A stretch of DNA of 64,000 nucleotides, taken from positions 1,152,001 to 1,216,000 of the forward strand of contig CBDANF010000002.1 of NCBI GenBank assembly GCA_965197475.1, written 5' to 3'. Origin of the DNA: Candidatus Poribacteria bacterium. Its GTDB lineage: Bacteria > Poribacteria > WGA-4E > WGA-3G. The translations under genes were made by a program, and so were the position numbers. The notes under the pieces were generated by a model that did not search any database, was not told where the DNA came from, and saw only the letters and a list, made by a program, of their open reading frames with translations. Position 1 is the first letter of the stretch. Each line of letters starts with the position of its first letter. Below are positions 5,564-42,501 of the stretch, one piece after another.

Positions 5564-8548
5564 ATGAAAACCATCTTATTTACATTATTTTCAGTAATCT
5601 TATTGTGTGCTATCGTTTTTCATAGCAACGCTTATGACTACCACTGGGAAATAGACGAAACACCAGAAGGAGAGGAAAGTGTTACCGTAGTCGAACCTGT
5701 GCAAGTGACGCTATTAGATGAACAGGTAGAAATATCATCTCATAGTGCATCACTACGTCTGCTCCAAGTATATTCTGTTCACCTCAGATCAGAATGGGAA
5801 TCAGGATACGCACATAGACTATTCCTAACGTTTGAATCAATTCCGCAACAAAAGAATCCTCTTTATGAAAATCCAGCTCTACAACCGTCTATATGGAAAC
5901 TAAGTAACAGGCACATTCAAAATGACATAGAGATTGAATACTCGGGTGATACTAAAATTGTCACCATTGCCGCCGATGCTTTTACTTATGCGACCCCTTT
6001 GTTAGCCGAAATCGAAGGCGTGCGTGGTAGGTACTTCTCCAAACGACTCCACCGGGCAGTGGTTCGGTACGTAACAGACAATGGGGCGGATAGAAACACT
6101 ATTAAACGTATACTTCGAAAAAGGTACGCCGTTAGTATAGATGTCCCTGATTATATTGAACTTACAAAGTATACAACAGGTGAACATGCGGGTCGTTTCT
6201 CAACATTCAAAGATGAAGAACTAATGGCTCTCGTATCAATGTTTGAGGAGTTTCCGCAAGGCATGCTTAAAACACCCGGATTAAAATATTTGGTTAGACG
6301 TTTAGATGGAACACCACATCCGCTTTATCCGACCGCGCCTGCAGTCGCGTGGCCGAGTGCAGGCTACATTGAATTTATGGAAGCTGCTTTTATAGGAGGC
6401 AGTCCTGATTACATGCATCGCTTGATTCTGCATGAAAAGGCACATTTCCTATGGGCACACCTTTTTGACGAACAACTTAAACAGGATTGGATTGAACTCG
6501 GCGGCTGGTTTCGAAATCCGGACGACGCTGATGGGTGGTCTACGACTAAGCAAACAGAGTTTGTTTCGGCGTACGCACACGCCAAAAATCCTAATGAAGA
6601 TATGGCGGAGAGTATCAGTTTTTATATCATAAGACCTGACAAGCTACGTTCTCGTTCACCTGCTAAATACGAATTTATTCAAAATCGGATAATGCACGGC
6701 ACGCGCTACATCTCACAAATACGCGAGGACTTGACTTTTGTGGTCTACAATCTTTATCCTGATTATGTGTATCCTGGACGGATTGTAAGAGTTGACATAC
6801 AAGTGGATGGTGAACCCGAAGAAGATAAGATGATTACAGTCGAAATAGAAATTCATAGAGAGAGCCAATTGGATTCAGCGCGAGGTGTATTTATTAGACT
6901 TTTTAGTGAAAAAGGCACGTTCTTTGATGTTTGGCTTTCACCTATCAATGCACAAGGACAACGAATTTCTGCGGGGCATGTTTTCAGAGGTTCAATAACA
7001 TTAACACGCTATGCCGCAAATGGTTACTGGGGGCCAGACTCGGTTACTTTAAGTGACGTTTCTGGAAATCAGCGTCATGAATCTGCTCAAACAGATTTTG
7101 GGTGGAAACTCTATATCAACAATCCTCTTGCGGATTGTCAACTTCCAGCGTATGTTAAGGAATCAATGCGTCTTAGCTTATCTCAAGGGATTGAGGAGGA
7201 TAGAACTTTTCACATCATCACCGCACGCTGGCAGATTGTTGAGGATATAGGAATAAGAAATGTATCTGTTCATGTTAACGATGAAAGTAGGGGAACTTAT
7301 TCACACAACGCAAAGAGTTGGAGGAACCCTCAAGTTGCTGCAGGTGGAGGGAGAGGTTACAACCACGAAACAGGTGAAGCTACAGCAGAATTGATTATTC
7401 CTGATTACTACCAAAACGGTAATTATCTGGTCCACTATATTTCTATGGTAGATTTTGCTGGAAACAGAAGCGGTGTGTATTTCTCTAATTTCGACGGGGG
7501 ACTATGGGAAACAGACATAAAACTTGACGAACTACCTGCTTCAATTTATGTTCCGACAATTAATCCTGATAACGCGCCAGTTGTGCTTGATCTGAATAAT
7601 ATTACGATTAAAGCAGAACCGACAAAGCCTGAAGACCCCAATGGTGAAACGATAGTCAATATTACCTTTAGAGTAAAAGACAATATCAGCGGTTATTGGA
7701 AAGCTGATTTACGCCTGCGTGATCCTTTAGGTAATATTCACCAATTCACACACTTTCATTCTGAGCATTACAAAATCTATTTCCATGGAGACCCGAAGGT
7801 ATATGAAACTTACCACAAACAGATTATTTTGCCGGTTGGCAGTATTCCCGGCACATGGGGCCTTGCCGAGATGGTAGTTTTTGATAAGGCACATAATATC
7901 TTACGGGCAGACTTTACTGAAATCGTCCGTTTTGTGGTGGATGATACTATTTATACCCAATCTGATGTCAACGAAGACGGTGAAATTGACATTCGGGATC
8001 TGATTATTGTTGCCCAATCGTTTGAAGACTTCAACGAAAAAGCAGATGTCAACGGTGATGGCACTGTCAATATTTTAGATTTAGTGGAAGTTGCCAGCCA
8101 TCTTGGAGAAGAAGCGGCGGCACCAGCTGCATACAACCCAACTGCTGATCAAATCCAAAGTTGGATCACGCAAGCAATGCAAGAAGATAATGGCAGTCAT
8201 ATCTTCCGTAGAGGTATCCAGGTCCTACAATCTCTCTTACTTAGCCTGCGTCCTGAAACAACTGCTTTGCTGCCTAACTACCCAAATCCGTTTAACCCGG
8301 AAACGTGGATACCTTATCATTTGGCAAACGCCAGCGATGTGCAGATTGCCATTTACGATACGAGAGGGCGCATAGTTCGCACGTTAGCACTCGGGCATCA
8401 GCCCGCAGGCTATTACACAGACAGAGGTCGTGCAGCATATTGGGATGGTCGGAATAGCGTGGGGGAACGTATTGCAAGCGGTGTCTATTTTTATCAACTG
8501 CAGGCGGATTCTATTTCACAACTGCGTAAAATGGTTATTTTGAAATAG
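5564..8548 (+). CDS. Secreted zinc-metallopeptidase-like protein with dockerin/EF-hand repeat and C-terminal FlgD/T9SS-A-like sorting domain
   Basis: Signal peptide; LHEKAH with downstream FVSAYA..NPNEDMAE; DVNEDGEIDIRDL/DVNGDGTVNILDL; LLPNYPNPFNPETWIPY...SGVYFY..RKMVILK. Confidence 0.85.
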   Translation: MKTILFTLFSVILLCAIVFHSNAYDYHWEIDETPEGEESVTVVEPVQVTLLDEQVEISSHSASLRLLQVYSVHLRSEWESGYAHRLFLTFESIPQQKNPLYENPALQPSIWKLSNRHIQNDIEIEYSGDTKIVTIAADAFTYATPLLAEIEGVRGRYFSKRLHRAVVRYVTDNGADRNTIKRILRKRYAVSIDVPDYIELTKYTTGEHAGRFSTFKDEELMALVSMFEEFPQGMLKTPGLKYLVRRLDGTPHPLYPTAPAVAWPSAGYIEFMEAAFIGGSPDYMHRLILHEKAHFLWAHLFDEQLKQDWIELGGWFRNPDDADGWSTTKQTEFVSAYAHAKNPNEDMAESISFYIIRPDKLRSRSPAKYEFIQNRIMHGTRYISQIREDLTFVVYNLYPDYVYPGRIVRVDIQVDGEPEEDKMITVEIEIHRESQLDSARGVFIRLFSEKGTFFDVWLSPINAQGQRISAGHVFRGSITLTRYAANGYWGPDSVTLSDVSGNQRHESAQTDFGWKLYINNPLADCQLPAYVKESMRLSLSQGIEEDRTFHIITARWQIVEDIGIRNVSVHVNDESRGTYSHNAKSWRNPQVAAGGGRGYNHETGEATAELIIPDYYQNGNYLVHYISMVDFAGNRSGVYFSNFDGGLWETDIKLDELPASIYVPTINPDNAPVVLDLNNITIKAEPTKPEDPNGETIVNITFRVKDNISGYWKADLRLRDPLGNIHQFTHFHSEHYKIYFHGDPKVYETYHKQIILPVGSIPGTWGLAEMVVFDKAHNILRADFTEIVRFVVDDTIYTQSDVNEDGEIDIRDLIIVAQSFEDFNEKADVNGDGTVNILDLVEVASHLGEEAAAPAAYNPTADQIQSWITQAMQEDNGSHIFRRGIQVLQSLLLSLRPETTALLPNYPNPFNPETWIPYHLANASDVQIAIYDTRGRIVRTLALGHQPAGYYTDRGRAAYWDGRNSVGERIASGVYFYQLQADSISQLRKMVILK

Positions 8549-8673
8549 TATCAAATGACCATAGGATAGCTGGAAGGCTGATGTTCATTGGCTTCCCAGC
8601 GATCGTTGATGAGTGGGTTGCGTTGGGATCGCGAGCATCCTCTTTGAGAAATGATGCGTTTAGCGATAAACGT
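8548..8673 (-). ncRNA. Candidate ~125-nt structured non-coding RNA of the DUF1670 element
   Basis: Lies directly downstream of a near-consensus promoter; four consecutive stems (CGTTTA/TAAACG, GCATC/GATGC, GCGATC/GATCGC with 22-nt loop, GCTGGGAAG/CTTCCAGC); transcription not demonstrated. Confidence 0.4.
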
Positions 8674-8679
8674 GTCTAA

Positions 8680-8708
8680 AGTATAGCAAAACCGGTAGCG
8701 GTTGTCAA
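8680..8708 (-). promoter_or_regulatory. Near-consensus sigma70 promoter inside the DUF1670 element
   Basis: TTGACA (8708-8703), 17-bp spacer, TGn-TATACT (8685-8680); the spacer overlaps one arm of the inverted repeat GCAAAACCGG/CCGGTTTTGC (8686-8695, 8731-8740). Confidence 0.7.
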
Positions 8709-8775
8709 CCATATTTTCAAGGCACCTGCCCCGGTTTTGCGAAGTAAAGTTCGTCGGGAACATAGGATTAGGGTC

Positions 8776-9660
8776 TCATTGGGCTTCTCCTTGGTGAGTG
8801 GCTTCATCGTTTGAGTCTGAATTGGCAAGGTTTGCATCTATGGCTTGGAGTTGGGGCTGCGGAATCAGGTCCAGATATTGAGTGATAACGCGTTTAGAAA
8901 GTCGGGTGATCTGTGAGATTTTATCAATATCTGTGGTAGCGGTGCGAACGACTTTGACGCTCTCATAATCGCGAATGTATCTATCAACTGCCTCCTTAGA
9001 GTGTTTGGTCTTTGCGGCAATCCTGGGGGTGAGATGTCCTTGAAGATAGAGGGTTATGATCTCTTTCTTATGGGTAATAGCCCCCGATAAGTCATGGATA
9101 TTGCCACGGGTGGGCAAGAGTTCTCCAGTGGTTTTTTGCCATTCATTAACATAATCACAGACAACGGCATCGCAGACATTGAGCAAAACTGCCAAGTCGA
9201 GTTGTGTCAATAATGCCCCTTGGTCATAAGCTTGATGACACCAGCGGACCAAGCGATTGATCCGCAATTGCCGGGAGGTGAAACCGTTTCTAAAAGATTC
9301 AATATCCTCTGCGGCGAGGTAGGTCAGGATGATGGGTTTCATCCGAGTTTTGACGATGGACTTTCCTCTTTCTGGATGTTCATCAATAGGGACGGCCATC
9401 CAAACGAGTTGTCCATAACTTAGGAAACGCTCATCTGGGAGTTGATCACCGGTGGCGAGTTTTTCCAAGGGGAGGGTAATTACGAAATAGTCTTCAACGG
9501 TCTTGAGAATATCATCAACAATGGCGGTGGCAGTGACTTCGCCTTTGTCATACCCGTAGTCATTGAGAAAGCGATGGATAAGCAACTGTCGTAGGGATTT
9601 ATCGTTGATGCGTCTGAATTTCTTCTCGTTGATTTGCGTGCGTGTTAGAGGTTTGCTCAT
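8776..9660 (-). CDS. DUF1670-like protein B
   Basis: RLVRWCHQAYDQGALLTQLDLAVLL...PTRGNIHDLSGAITHKKEIITLYLQG...HSKEAVDRYIRDY, matching my recollection of the DUF1670 pattern; start overlaps the stop of protein A (ATGA). Confidence 0.78.
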   Translation of the reverse strand: MSKPLTRTQINEKKFRRINDKSLRQLLIHRFLNDYGYDKGEVTATAIVDDILKTVEDYFVITLPLEKLATGDQLPDERFLSYGQLVWMAVPIDEHPERGKSIVKTRMKPIILTYLAAEDIESFRNGFTSRQLRINRLVRWCHQAYDQGALLTQLDLAVLLNVCDAVVCDYVNEWQKTTGELLPTRGNIHDLSGAITHKKEIITLYLQGHLTPRIAAKTKHSKEAVDRYIRDYESVKVVRTATTDIDKISQITRLSKRVITQYLDLIPQPQLQAIDANLANSDSNDEATHQGEAQ

Positions 9661-10457
9661 GAGAGATCCTCCTTTTTTGTGTCCTCTGGTTCTGGGTGAA
9701 GGAGTTGGGTCATGCGATCGGTGTGTTGATATTCCTTGAACAGCGAGAGATACTCGCGTATCAACCGGTCAGAGAGATGAGAAATCAGGCGTATCTGAGC
9801 GTTAGGGAACCCTTGATGATGGAGCGTGGCAACTTGTGTGAAGTCCCTCAAGTAGCGGTAGACAGCCCGTTCGGAGTGGTTCGTCTTTTGCTCAATCTCG
9901 GTGAAGGTGTATGCTTTGAAGTACAGCTCGAGAATCTGCGTCTTATGAGACAGTCCCGGGCCCATGTCGTGTTTCGCCCCGCGCGTCATCACGAAATAGC
10001 CGGACTGCTTCAACGCTCGGATGTCGCGTTTGACGGTGGCAGGACTGGTGGTTAATAACACCGCCAAATCCTCATAACTCAGCAAGGCTTCTTGGTCATA
10101 AGCTTCTTGGGTCAATCGGAGGATCCGATGCCGTCTGAGTCCTGCGAGCCCATAAGTCGCTAAAACTTCAAGGTCGGCTTCAACATCGTTGAGTTTGAGT
10201 CGACAGGAGACTTTTTTCGCTAAAGCGATGTGTTTGCCTGCGGGTTCCTCAGCGGCGACTGCCTCGTAGCAGATTTGCCCTGATGTGAGTTGCACATCGG
10301 CATGTTGTTCAAAGTAGGTAGAAATCTGTTTATAGTAGGCTTCAGCAACGAGAGGCATGAGATTAAAGTCTGCTGAAATCTTCTGAATAATCGCGGCTCT
10401 GGCATTCTTGGATTCGAGCCGAGTGATACCGTAAGCGGTATCCTTCTTGCGGTTCAT
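9657..10457 (-). CDS. DUF1670-like protein A
   Basis: RILRLTQEAYDQEALLSYEDLAVLL...TRGAKHDMGPGLSHKTQILELY...HSERAVYRYLRDF; GGAGGT RBS before ATG 10457. Confidence 0.8.
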   Translation of the reverse strand: MNRKKDTAYGITRLESKNARAAIIQKISADFNLMPLVAEAYYKQISTYFEQHADVQLTSGQICYEAVAAEEPAGKHIALAKKVSCRLKLNDVEADLEVLATYGLAGLRRHRILRLTQEAYDQEALLSYEDLAVLLTTSPATVKRDIRALKQSGYFVMTRGAKHDMGPGLSHKTQILELYFKAYTFTEIEQKTNHSERAVYRYLRDFTQVATLHHQGFPNAQIRLISHLSDRLIREYLSLFKEYQHTDRMTQLLHPEPEDTKKEDLS

Positions 10458-10770
10458 ATTGACCTCCATGAATAGATTATCGGGGATCCGAGGACATCTA
10501 CTCGTTAGTTTAACGAATACTAATAGTATAACTCATGGGGTCATTTGATACAAACTATAAGTAAAGAAATAAGTTGAGTTGGGTTTCGCTGTGCTCTACC
10601 CCGCCAAATGCCATAGGCGTATTTGGCGTTGATTCCCTACACTTGATTTCTTATTTCGAACTCACGTTTACTATAGTTTGGACAATTTCATCCTATCAGG
10701 ACTTCGGACCAGGTGTTAAATATGGTTTGTAAGCACACTTGAGACAGCTGCTGGTGTCTATCAAAAAATC

Positions 10771-11636
10771 ATGGCAACACTTTATGATGTCTATTTCCCA
10801 TGCGTAGAAGCACTGCGTCCGGGGCCAAAAAGTCGTTGTCCTGATAGTGAAATTCTCACATTTGTTTGGGCTTCTTGAACTGACAGGAAGATAACGAACT
10901 CACAGGATACAACCTTATCAAGCACAACTCGGACATCTTTTCCCATATTTACCGGAACGCTCTCGCTTCAATCGAAGTATGCGAAACCTGTGCCACGCAA
11001 GCGAAAACTCCGGAGGATTTTGACACAGTTCTTACCAGATGATAGGGTTTTCATTGTAGATAGTTTTCCTATCCCGGTTTGCGATTTCAAGCGTGCTGCG
11101 ACTTCTACATCGTCTCTAAAATGTGCTGATGGCACCGGCACCTCGGCAACTTATGGAAAGTGTGCCACAAAAAGGCTTGACACTTTCTTAAGGTTTCGTG
11201 GTAGTCTGATAACCACCGTTTACGAACTATCTGTTGATTTGTGGTCGCCACTGCGGATACAGATGATCAAGAAATGCTCAGCTTACTATGTGAACGCGGC
11301 ACTTGTCCTATTATCCTTGGAGATAAAGGATATTTCCGAGTAACTTGAGACTGATTTACTTGAAACAGACAATGTGCGTCTTTTACCGACGCGGTGTCCA
11401 AATCAGAAAACACAATACCCAAAGCCGTTTCGGAAGTTGCACGGTAAAACGGTGGCGGATTGAGACGACTATCAGTCAACTCACAAATCAGTTTAATGTT
11501 TCACAAATACGCGCCCGCGCTCATTGAAGTTTTCAAACACGGTTGAGCAATAAGTTGATGGTTGGACATTAGGTGTTTTTTGAATCAATATTTAGGATGC
11601 CCGTTAATGGCACTCAAAGATGTCGTTTATACATAA
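10771..11636 (+). pseudogene. Decayed IS982-family transposase
   Basis: Fragments DSEILT, LPERSRFNR..RNL, IVDSFPIPVC, GDKGY (off-frame) and RWRIETTISQL...IRAR, split by stops and frameshifts. Confidence 0.75.
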
Positions 11637-38859: not shown

Positions 38860-38888
38860 ATTATATAGCCTCCATTAAAATTTGTCAA
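38860..38888 (-). promoter_or_regulatory. Perfect sigma70 consensus promoter (cassette A)
   Basis: TTGACA, 17-bp spacer, TATAAT. Confidence 0.6.
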
Positions 38889-42472: not shown

Positions 42473-42501
42473 ATTATATATCCTCCATTAAAATTTGTCA
42501 A
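42473..42501 (-). promoter_or_regulatory. Perfect sigma70 consensus promoter (cassette B)
   Basis: TTGACA, 17-bp spacer, TATAAT. Confidence 0.6.

Follow-up and report, generated by a model that had tools for sequence, protein, structure and literature searches.

The 64-kb window analysed here (the whole stretch of DNA under study, from a Candidatus Poribacteria genome) carries a mobile element of about 2 kb with two genes of the DUF1670 family (PF07900), an A-type gene that also contains an HTH_11 domain and, in tandem with it, a B-type gene. The pair lies between terminal inverted repeats that have the core GTATCAAATGACC in common. The 228 bases at 8548-8775 are the tail of this A+B element and the subject of this work. 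Alignment of copies and flanks placed the end of the element at 8544/8545, where the preliminary description of the tail had assumed it; as refined limits we propose ATAG...CTAT at 10558..8545, with a duplicated TT probably flanking the element at 10560-10559 and 8544-8543. Genes A (10469..9657) and B (9660..8776) overlap. The features of the element needed in what follows are:

8544..10563, minus strand: the mobile element, 2020 bp as matched, with boundaries from flank alignment.
9657..10469, minus strand: gene A, 270 aa, matching Pfam PF07900 (DUF1670) at 1.1e-60 and HTH_11 at 2.6e-7.
8776..9660, minus strand: gene B, 294 aa, matching Pfam PF07900 (DUF1670) at 1.5e-61, with its stop at 8778-8776.
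10539..10558, minus strand: left terminal inverted repeat, ATAGTTTGTATCAAATGACC.
8545..8560, minus strand: right terminal inverted repeat, GGTCATTTGATACTAT, identity 0.98.
8731..8740, minus strand: upstream arm of an operator-like inverted repeat, GCAAAACCGG.
8703..8708, minus strand: -35 hexamer TTGACA, from direct reading and a consensus scan.
8686..8695, minus strand: downstream arm of the inverted repeat, CCGGTTTTGC, lying within the spacer and taking in the TG of the extended -10.
8688-8687, minus strand: that TG (TGc), at the end of a spacer of 17 nt, from direct reading.
8680..8685, minus strand: -10 hexamer TATACT, with TGc before it, from direct reading.
8545..8673, minus strand: predicted transcribed leader, non-coding, from a start placed by the position of the -10 to the element end.

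Direct reading of the minus strand 3' of gene B bore out the promoter given in the preliminary description, TTGACA-17-TGnTATACT, together with the 10-bp inverted repeat GCAAAACCGG/CCGGTTTTGC, which flanks the -35 on both sides and fills the spacer with its second arm. The -35 starts 68 nt past the stop of gene B, and the promoter sits 136-165 nt inside the right end, pointing toward that end (boundaries as defined by 18 full copies). A consensus scan of 8000-11000 ranked it first, with 11/12 consensus positions plus the TG; the scan returned 8 promoter-like sites in this region, as against 4.4 +/- 2.0 in shuffles, and found no terminator-like site downstream of the promoter on the minus strand. 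TTGACA-N17-TATACT has no other exact match in the whole window, and with at most one mismatch it occurs 5 times versus 0.36 expected, a number reached in 0/100 shuffles. Transcription would likely start near 8673. Elsewhere in the window, a near-identical promoter-like pair, TTGACAAATTTTAATGGAGG[C/A]TATATAAT, lies on the minus strand at 38860-38888 and 42473-42501, 3.6 kb apart, which suggests another repeated unit.

The window's own genome holds 18 full-length copies of the element with 92.8-100% identity, in addition to one truncated copy and one internally deleted derivative. The tails of these copies are near-identical and, being almost identical, are uninformative on covariation. Related elements were present in 17 of the 61 relatives sampled. 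Public genomes gave 76 loci, 75 of them labelled Poribacteria, with protein B 75-98% identical; the right end was present in 69/76 of these loci and yielded 49 unique tails. Pooled with the own genome, the set comprised 76 unique full elements at 91 distinct insertion sites, the sequences being kin to each other and several coming from the same genomes.

Across this set the promoter is strongly conserved. The -10 reads TATACT in 75/76 unique elements and TATAAT in the remaining one (L024), and the -35, scored in 75, reads TTGACA in 60, TTGGCA in 7, TTGATA in 6, and TTGAGA and TCGGAA in 1 each. Of these 75 elements, 50 have a spacer of 17 nt, 24 one of 18 nt and a single element one of 16 nt; a TGn stands before the -10 in 74. 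When 74 unique elements were compared pairwise, the -35 hexamer had a mean identity of 0.93 and TGn plus the -10 one of 0.92, as against 0.66-0.67 for the third positions of codons in A and B. The spacer, at 0.70, is about neutral; the transcribed stretch ahead of the repeat gave 0.695, the interval from the B stop to the upstream arm 0.42, and the right terminal repeat 0.98. Because of these values, we regard the hexamers and the last ~60 nt as being under selection, while most of the leader drifts near the synonymous rate. Hexamer match and spacing are those of a sigma-70-type promoter, the hexamers are kept while the spacer drifts, and the site is placed like the outward promoters of insertion sequences, close to one end of a mobile element and facing out of it. 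Judged by its sequence, the tail thus contains a genuine sigma-70-type promoter under purifying selection, whose activity we infer, and its earlier designation as an outward promoter gains support from the homologues.

A GCAAAA-like upstream arm and a TTTTG-like spacer arm were found together in 55/76 unique elements, a result that is consistent with an operator and falls short of showing one. One of the helix-turn-helix proteins that the element encodes probably uses the inverted repeat as its operator. The internally deleted derivative (G000:C3:94056-94563) retains 298 nt from the left end together with the final 155-180 nt of tail; its deletion joint falls within the promoter spacer, so that the -10 is present and the -35 is gone.

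The preliminary description had seen no credible open reading frame (ORF) behind the promoter, and the comparison agrees. Across unique elements the tail ranges from 132 to 292 nt and its longest ORF from 13 to 70 aa, and the indels in the tail alignment are not multiples of three. A small protein could be encoded in the window copy by either a 70-aa ORF (8763..8551), which begins upstream of the promoter, or a 17-codon ORF behind GAGGATG. The former, however, is found in just 13/68 unique elements, the latter, as read from the alignment, meets a stop within 6-10 codons in other subfamilies and is lost by deletion from the 97-nt one, and neither has a match in Pfam or NCBIfam. We rejected the small ORFs, as no ORF is conserved behind the promoter, and consider a protein product next to impossible. 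Between the predicted start and the element end lie 129-134 nt in 63 unique elements and 97-101 nt in 12 others; these 12/75, the 97-nt subfamily, are multi-copy in their genomes and have 35 nt deleted, a loss that removes stem 2 and the 5' arm of stem 3 of the structure considered next.

Four back-to-back stems had been proposed for the RNA, and the parts of this structure that matter here are:

8657..8672, minus strand: stem 1, CGTTTA-TCGC-TAAACG, a hairpin directly after the predicted start.
8599..8632, minus strand: stem 3, GCGATC/GATCGC with a 22-nt C/A-rich loop, absent from the minimum free energy (MFE) and centroid folds.
8565..8604, minus strand: terminal long hairpin, GATCGCTGGGAAG...CTTCCAGCTATC, which includes stem 4 and adjoins the right inverted repeat.

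The stems can be drawn on the window copy with 25 pairs, and stems 2 and 4 are kept in its MFE fold, but stems 1 and 3 give way there to a long-range stem; the fold has z = -1.98, and 7/200 shuffles fold equally well. For 35 diverse sequences RNAalifold found no consensus fold (3 pairs, -0.3 kcal/mol). The four-hairpin proposal thus holds only in part. When the four stems were placed on the 35-sequence alignment, 77.3% of cells were paired, compared with 30-41.5% for slid partners, a control that is biased by the derivation of the structure from one alignment row. Stem 3 was the worst of the four (68% of cells paired, and pair 53-79 present in 8/35 sequences), while stem 1 had 80% of cells paired and 3/6 pairs changed on both sides; a different hairpin takes the place of stem 1 in other subfamilies.

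Covariation was weak or not significant. The covariation score of the four stems was 0.173 versus 0.136 in shuffles, with 0/500 as high, but the number of pairs changed on both sides was 7 versus 6.6 (259/500 as high), and in a scan of all column pairs the top pairs were scattered and formed no helices. The terminal hairpin, analysed on 41 sequences, had 72.3% of cells paired versus 70.2% in shuffles (1/500); its covariation was not significant (0.117 versus 0.108, 54/500; double-change pairs 3 versus 3.1). All covariation results are affected by a mean column identity of 79-81%, which leaves little power, and by alignments that are not structure-aware. The covariance models of Rfam 15 gave 3 chance-level matches (E 2.3-8.2), none of them in the tail.

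Folded singly, 13 subfamily representatives had z-values from +0.45 to -4.05, 7/13 of them at or below -2.0, and the terminal long hairpin upstream of the right repeat was in the MFE fold of 13/13, with an extension that differs by subfamily. For 52 unique RNAs, which are related and hence not independent, mean z was -2.20 for the whole RNA (31/52 below -2), -1.98 for the terminal 63 nt and -1.19 for the first 30 nt. The hairpin beside the end is thus a constant feature and the RNAs are mildly structured, but these results do not demonstrate a fold maintained at the RNA level. The terminal hairpin could equally be read as a DNA palindrome for a dimeric protein.

The site at which the element sits in the window is the 3' end of a gene that converges on it:

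5564..8548, plus strand: host gene of 994 aa, converging on the element; its C-terminal sorting domain is of the type IX secretion kind (Por_Secre_tail, residues 906-992).

The host protein ends in ...YFYQLQADSISQLRKMVILK*, its last codon and stop being completed by the element end. The element appears to enter the last Lys codon, and its end would supply the third A and a TAG stop, leaving the host protein unchanged; the three nucleotides left of the element (TAC, TAT or CAC) combine the displaced G/A with a portion of the former stop codon. At least 76 of the 91 distinct sites lie at the last codon of ORFs ending in ...YFYxLxAGxFxATRKMLIxK*, always in the identical, convergent orientation. 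Elements of a subfamily with protein B ~80% identical sit instead in the loop of a 13-bp palindrome, GAAACCGAGTTTT...AAAACTCGGTTTC, at 7 sites (L029, L030, L031, L041, L042, L109 and L118). A second copy in the own genome (G000:C3:845182-847392) is 100% identical to window 8540-10750, including 187 nt of left flank; its right flank differs and is not a secretion gene, reflecting a rearrangement between copies or an assembly join. Immediately beyond the left end, at 10598-10635, the window contains a palindromic repeat of ~38 nt (CGCCAAATACGCCTATGGCATTTGGCG-like) found in about a dozen places of the genome at 90-97% identity, which looks like a repetitive extragenic palindromic (REP)-like element 3' of genes.

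Such precise targeting by an element with a non-coding end made a programmable guide RNA attractive, either of the bridge or seekRNA kind or an omega-like RNA with a guide read from the flank, and an element-encoded guide or scaffold RNA had indeed been put forward for the tail. The RNA would come from a non-coding element end and read outward over the boundary, as omega RNAs do, and the element is highly site-specific. Nevertheless, Pfam found only DUF1670 and HTH domains in proteins A and B, with no DEDD recombinase and no RuvC nuclease of the TnpB or IscB kind. The best 12-nt match between RNA and insertion site, over 88 sites, was 8.92 in the same sense and 8.90 in the complement, versus 9.16 for shuffled RNA, in a test that excludes the terminal repeat from the RNA and is weak for split guides of 4-7 nt. 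This gap is covered because the target switches without a block change in the RNA: the tails of L094 (secretion-gene site) and L110 (palindrome site) differ at ~6 point positions of 131 (alignment reading). Moreover, identical copies stand beside flanks that read as clearly different, and the distant relatives described below have no such tail. Together with the lack of a consensus fold, these results led us to reject a guide RNA, which we hold to be very unlikely, since matching stays at shuffle level and the target switch follows protein B rather than the RNA.

Along the element, identity between L094 and L029/L030 is lowest (0.73-0.76) at element positions 1200-1300, inside gene B, a stretch in which the two elements of the palindrome class share an identity of 0.92; no division along target classes is seen in the tail region. 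The block of changes corresponds to protein B residues ~111-135, plus two nearby sites. Seven rows have the block ...ESFRNGFTSRQLRIN..., with C/A and G, and belong to 6 secretion-gene sites (including L094) and to L057 at another site, while seven rows with ...EHYYSGFSSRELRIH..., with R/P and A, belong to 5 palindrome sites and 2 other sites. Protein B, at residues ~111-135, is therefore the likely seat of target choice, as far as the pattern of substitutions can tell.

The AlphaFold2 model of protein B (predicted local distance difference test, pLDDT, 88.1; predicted template modelling score, pTM, 0.69) is a helical structure that contains several helix-turn-helix units besides a small beta hairpin. 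Foldseek gave no PDB match to it at E <= 0.001 (best 0.19), the hits being helix-turn-helix regulators and Pax paired domains, and a sequence-profile search of the PDB had as its best match (E 0.0016) a 'CAP repeat' chain over the helix-turn-helix stretch, which is uninformative. A search of the genome for another element that shares the DUF1670 element's terminal repeat, and might thus be the source of a transposase, was negative: of 41 repeat matches with at most 1 mismatch, 1 fell outside known copies and was chance-like. Protein B had no match in a plasmid collection.

The DUF1670 family is broad, with 1004 cluster representatives at E <= 0.001; the commonest phyla of its Atlas clusters, taken as leads only, are Planctomycetota, Bacteroidota, Chloroflexota, Methanobacteriota and others. 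DUF1670 is present in 38/151 Poribacteria genomes and, among control genomes, in Methanosarcina acetivorans. Four proteins (P0134, P0135, P0140 and P0145) of ~930-950 aa have three DUF1670 stretches each and are fused triple forms.

Six distant metagenome loci (L158-L163) encode proteins 30-35% identical to a distant representative. A tandem ORF pair of the right sizes is present in 5/6 of them, L159 having one ORF on a 1.2-kb contig, and in the two pairs scanned (L158 and L160) Pfam confirmed an A-type followed by a B-type gene. These tandem-pair elements measure ~1.7-1.8 kb. Terminal repeats were mapped at 383-406 and 2092-2115 in L160 and at 482-502 and 2195-2215 in L162; both elements hold no other gene, and their neighbours are unrelated host genes (acyl-CoA dehydrogenase, glycosyltransferases). 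The right repeat starts 12 nt (L160) or 23 nt (L162) after the B stop and, by homology to the L162 repeat, 32 nt (L161) or 29 nt (L163) after it; judged by eye, L158 and L159 have tails of about 35-55 nt. No distant locus has room for a promoter plus 130 nt, and the short distant tails indicate that the tail is an addition of the Poribacteria clade, outside the core machinery of the family. The end of L159 (GGTCATTTGACC) resembles the Poribacteria terminal repeat. Mapped distant elements with no other gene, and the absence of a catalytic fold in B, suggest an undescribed kind of transposition protein.

We conclude that the tail is best read as a clade-specific, probably self-regulated read-out promoter. 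It would fire co-directionally with A and B and leave the element by way of a leader of ~130 nt (in one subfamily 97 nt) and then the right repeat, a path along which the scan found no minus-strand terminator-like site. The repeat that brackets the -35 would serve as operator for the element's own helix-turn-helix protein and so allow self-regulation, and the selected parts, namely the promoter and the last ~60 nt with the terminal hairpin and repeat, would likely be protein-binding DNA. Were right and left ends to meet, as they would in a circle or between tandem copies, the promoter would drive A-B, producing a transcript of 130 nt plus a 94-nt left leader followed by gene A. We put the probability that read-out transcription serves to drive A-B from joined ends, promoter activity and joined ends both being predicted, at roughly 0.3, and prefer this use to an interplay with the convergent host gene and to an RNA cofactor that does not guide; what probability the readings listed here leave over belongs to something else.

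Several observations weigh against this proposal. The right-left junction pattern occurred in 1/151 Poribacteria genomes (G102) and in none of the viral contigs, and no right-left joint was among the joints listed for RNA contigs, counts that transient circles would in any case escape because they are not assembled. The left end may have a promoter of its own, which would make junction drive of A-B unnecessary:

10553-10548 and 10530-10525, minus strand: possible left-end inward promoter, TTGTAT, 17 nt, TATACT, proposed from the sequence and absent from the consensus-scan list.

The -10 of this site varies as TA[T/C/A]ACT. In four sponge metatranscriptome runs of one study 47-62% of the element's sampled words were present, and contigs from the RNA libraries cover the whole element, including 8543-8701 and 8673-8838, but give neither strand nor starts. 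One contig end, at 8673, coincides with the predicted start, yet the ends at 8673 and 8701 are explained by branching of the assembly graph (k=31) at an indel near 8702; DNA carry-over in these libraries is possible; and contig depth cannot rank regions, the low depth in the 8746-8836 bin, the most variable stretch, being meaningless. The RNAs fold somewhat better than shuffles (mean z -2.20; 31/52 below -2) and stem 1 shows compensatory changes, so that some RNA-level constraint on the tail is possible. Finally, the target switch is a single evolutionary event, and its link to protein B hence a correlation only.

Two sequences at the ends deserve mention beside these points. The left flank of L097 (L157, G102:C1:247721-247751) is the G102 case: a right-repeat-like sequence of 13-17 nt abuts the left end with exactly the spacing of a joined-ends junction (GATACTAT-TT-ATAG). 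At window 10525-10537 a perfect palindrome, ATACTA-T-TAGTAT, overlaps the possible left-end -10; TATACT-TTAG is common to this palindrome and the right promoter, which points to a possible shared operator of both promoters.

Other uses of the tail must be set against promoter drive of A-B from joined ends. The one we would place directly behind it, and hold only tentatively, is that the promoter handles the convergent host gene. By inserting tail-to-tail on the last codon, the element would separate the host gene from its terminator, so that host transcription, if unopposed, would continue into B and A. Transcription coming out of the element would meet it head-on or be antisense to it, and the terminal hairpin may help to bring host transcription to a halt. 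The fact that at least 76/91 sites are at the C-terminal codon of secretion-cargo genes, always convergent, speaks for this, as does the confinement of the tail to this clade, L160 and L162 having no tail and lying upstream of co-directional host genes; a near-neutral leader would also suit a role for the act of transcription. But the promoter is kept in the palindrome subfamily, where stop-to-stop ORFs to the right are often co-directional (a mixed picture, and not gene calls), and the terminal hairpin is followed by no T-run on either strand and was not found as a terminator by the scan. A doubtful but still serious candidate is a discrete, structured, clade-specific RNA of ~100-130 nt that works with the DUF1670 proteins without guiding them, as scaffold, decoy or regulator. 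Such an RNA would carry the right terminal repeat, its length from start to end is tightly held, and the folding results given above (7/13 representatives at z <= -2.0 and a mean of -2.20 over 52; the long hairpin beside the repeat in 13/13 MFE folds, with subfamily-specific extensions; 3 pairs of stem 1 changed on both sides) are in its favour. It is weakened by the lack of a consensus (3 pairs, -0.3 kcal/mol), by top covarying columns that form no helices, by double-change and covariation values at the level of shuffles (7 versus 6.6, 259/500, for the four stems; 0.117 versus 0.108, 54/500, for the terminal hairpin), by a 35-nt internal deletion that a multi-copy subfamily tolerates, and by near-neutral identity, no Rfam match and distant elements without the tail.

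We think it unlikely that, in a more specific form of the RNA idea, the tail encodes a clade-specific, non-programmable RNA partner of an undescribed DUF1670 transposition machinery, in which the right-end sequence and terminal hairpin would assemble or restrain the A/B complex at the ends, or the stretch transcribed beyond the element, being antisense to secretion-cargo genes at their conserved 3' ends, would assist in finding new sites. It is less probable still that the conserved motifs act as DNA only, as binding sites of A/B near the end, and that their likeness to a promoter is incidental. The inverted repeat at the -35 and the palindromic terminal hairpin do resemble sites for dimeric helix-turn-helix proteins, and a TATACT motif also lies 34-39 nt inside the left end; but both hexamers, the spacing and the TG fit the sigma-70 consensus together, and variants remain consensus-like (TTGATA, TTGGCA, TATAAT), with neutral drift in the spacer between the hexamers.

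A promoter alone would be unsurprising. What is noteworthy is a widespread family of DUF1670 elements on which a literature search for DUF1670 or PF07900 found no paper; a search on Poribacteria with insertion sequence and transposase returned nothing on this element, judged from search results alone, and none was found that combines insertion sequence, stop codon, target site and type IX secretion. Although no catalytic domain can be recognised in it, the element inserts with the precision of one codon. Being under strong selection and present only in the clade that sits on stop codons of secretion genes, the promoter offers a handle on self-control or control of host genes, and the negative guide result removes a tempting bridge-RNA-like reading and directs attention to residues ~111-135 of protein B.

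Among known systems, non-coding RNAs are made from non-coding element ends in the case of the IS110 bridge RNA, the IS1111 seekRNA and the omega RNAs of TnpB/IscB. The DUF1670 element is likewise a site-specific mobile element with a non-coding end, but differs from them in having, by Pfam, no DEDD recombinase or RuvC nuclease; unlike IS110/IS1111, it has no loops matching target or donor and no significant covariation, and its target class follows protein B. RNA-OUT of IS10, transcribed from pOUT, is a regulatory RNA antisense to the start of the transposase mRNA at the same end. An outward promoter in the element end and a short, hairpin-rich non-coding RNA (predicted here) are common to both, whereas the RNA of the DUF1670 element would be co-directional with and downstream of the genes, and the homology or complementarity of the tail to the left end is limited to the 13-nt terminal repeat. 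In IS3/IS911, IS30 and IS256, circle formation assembles a junction promoter to which one end contributes the -35 and the opposite end the -10. The proposed logic is alike, in that joining of right and left ends puts a strong promoter upstream of the transposition genes; in the DUF1670 element, by contrast, the promoter is complete and lies ~130 nt inside the right end, both hexamers being in the right tail with no good -35/-10 pair across the joined sequence, and joined ends are limited to one end-like sequence in 1/151 genomes. Outward promoters are well known in insertion sequences, for example ISEcp1, where the promoter is downstream of the transposase gene, and ISAba1. As in these, a complete sigma-70-type promoter lies within the element, 3' of and co-directional with its genes, and reads through the terminal repeat; it differs in that insertion in one orientation directs it mostly antisense into the 3' end of a host gene instead of into a downstream gene, in the operator-like inverted repeat around it, and in proteins that are DUF1670 and not a known transposase. 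The tail thus lacks the tested defining features of bridge and seek RNAs, omega RNAs and assembled junction promoters, and works like the outward promoters of insertion sequences.

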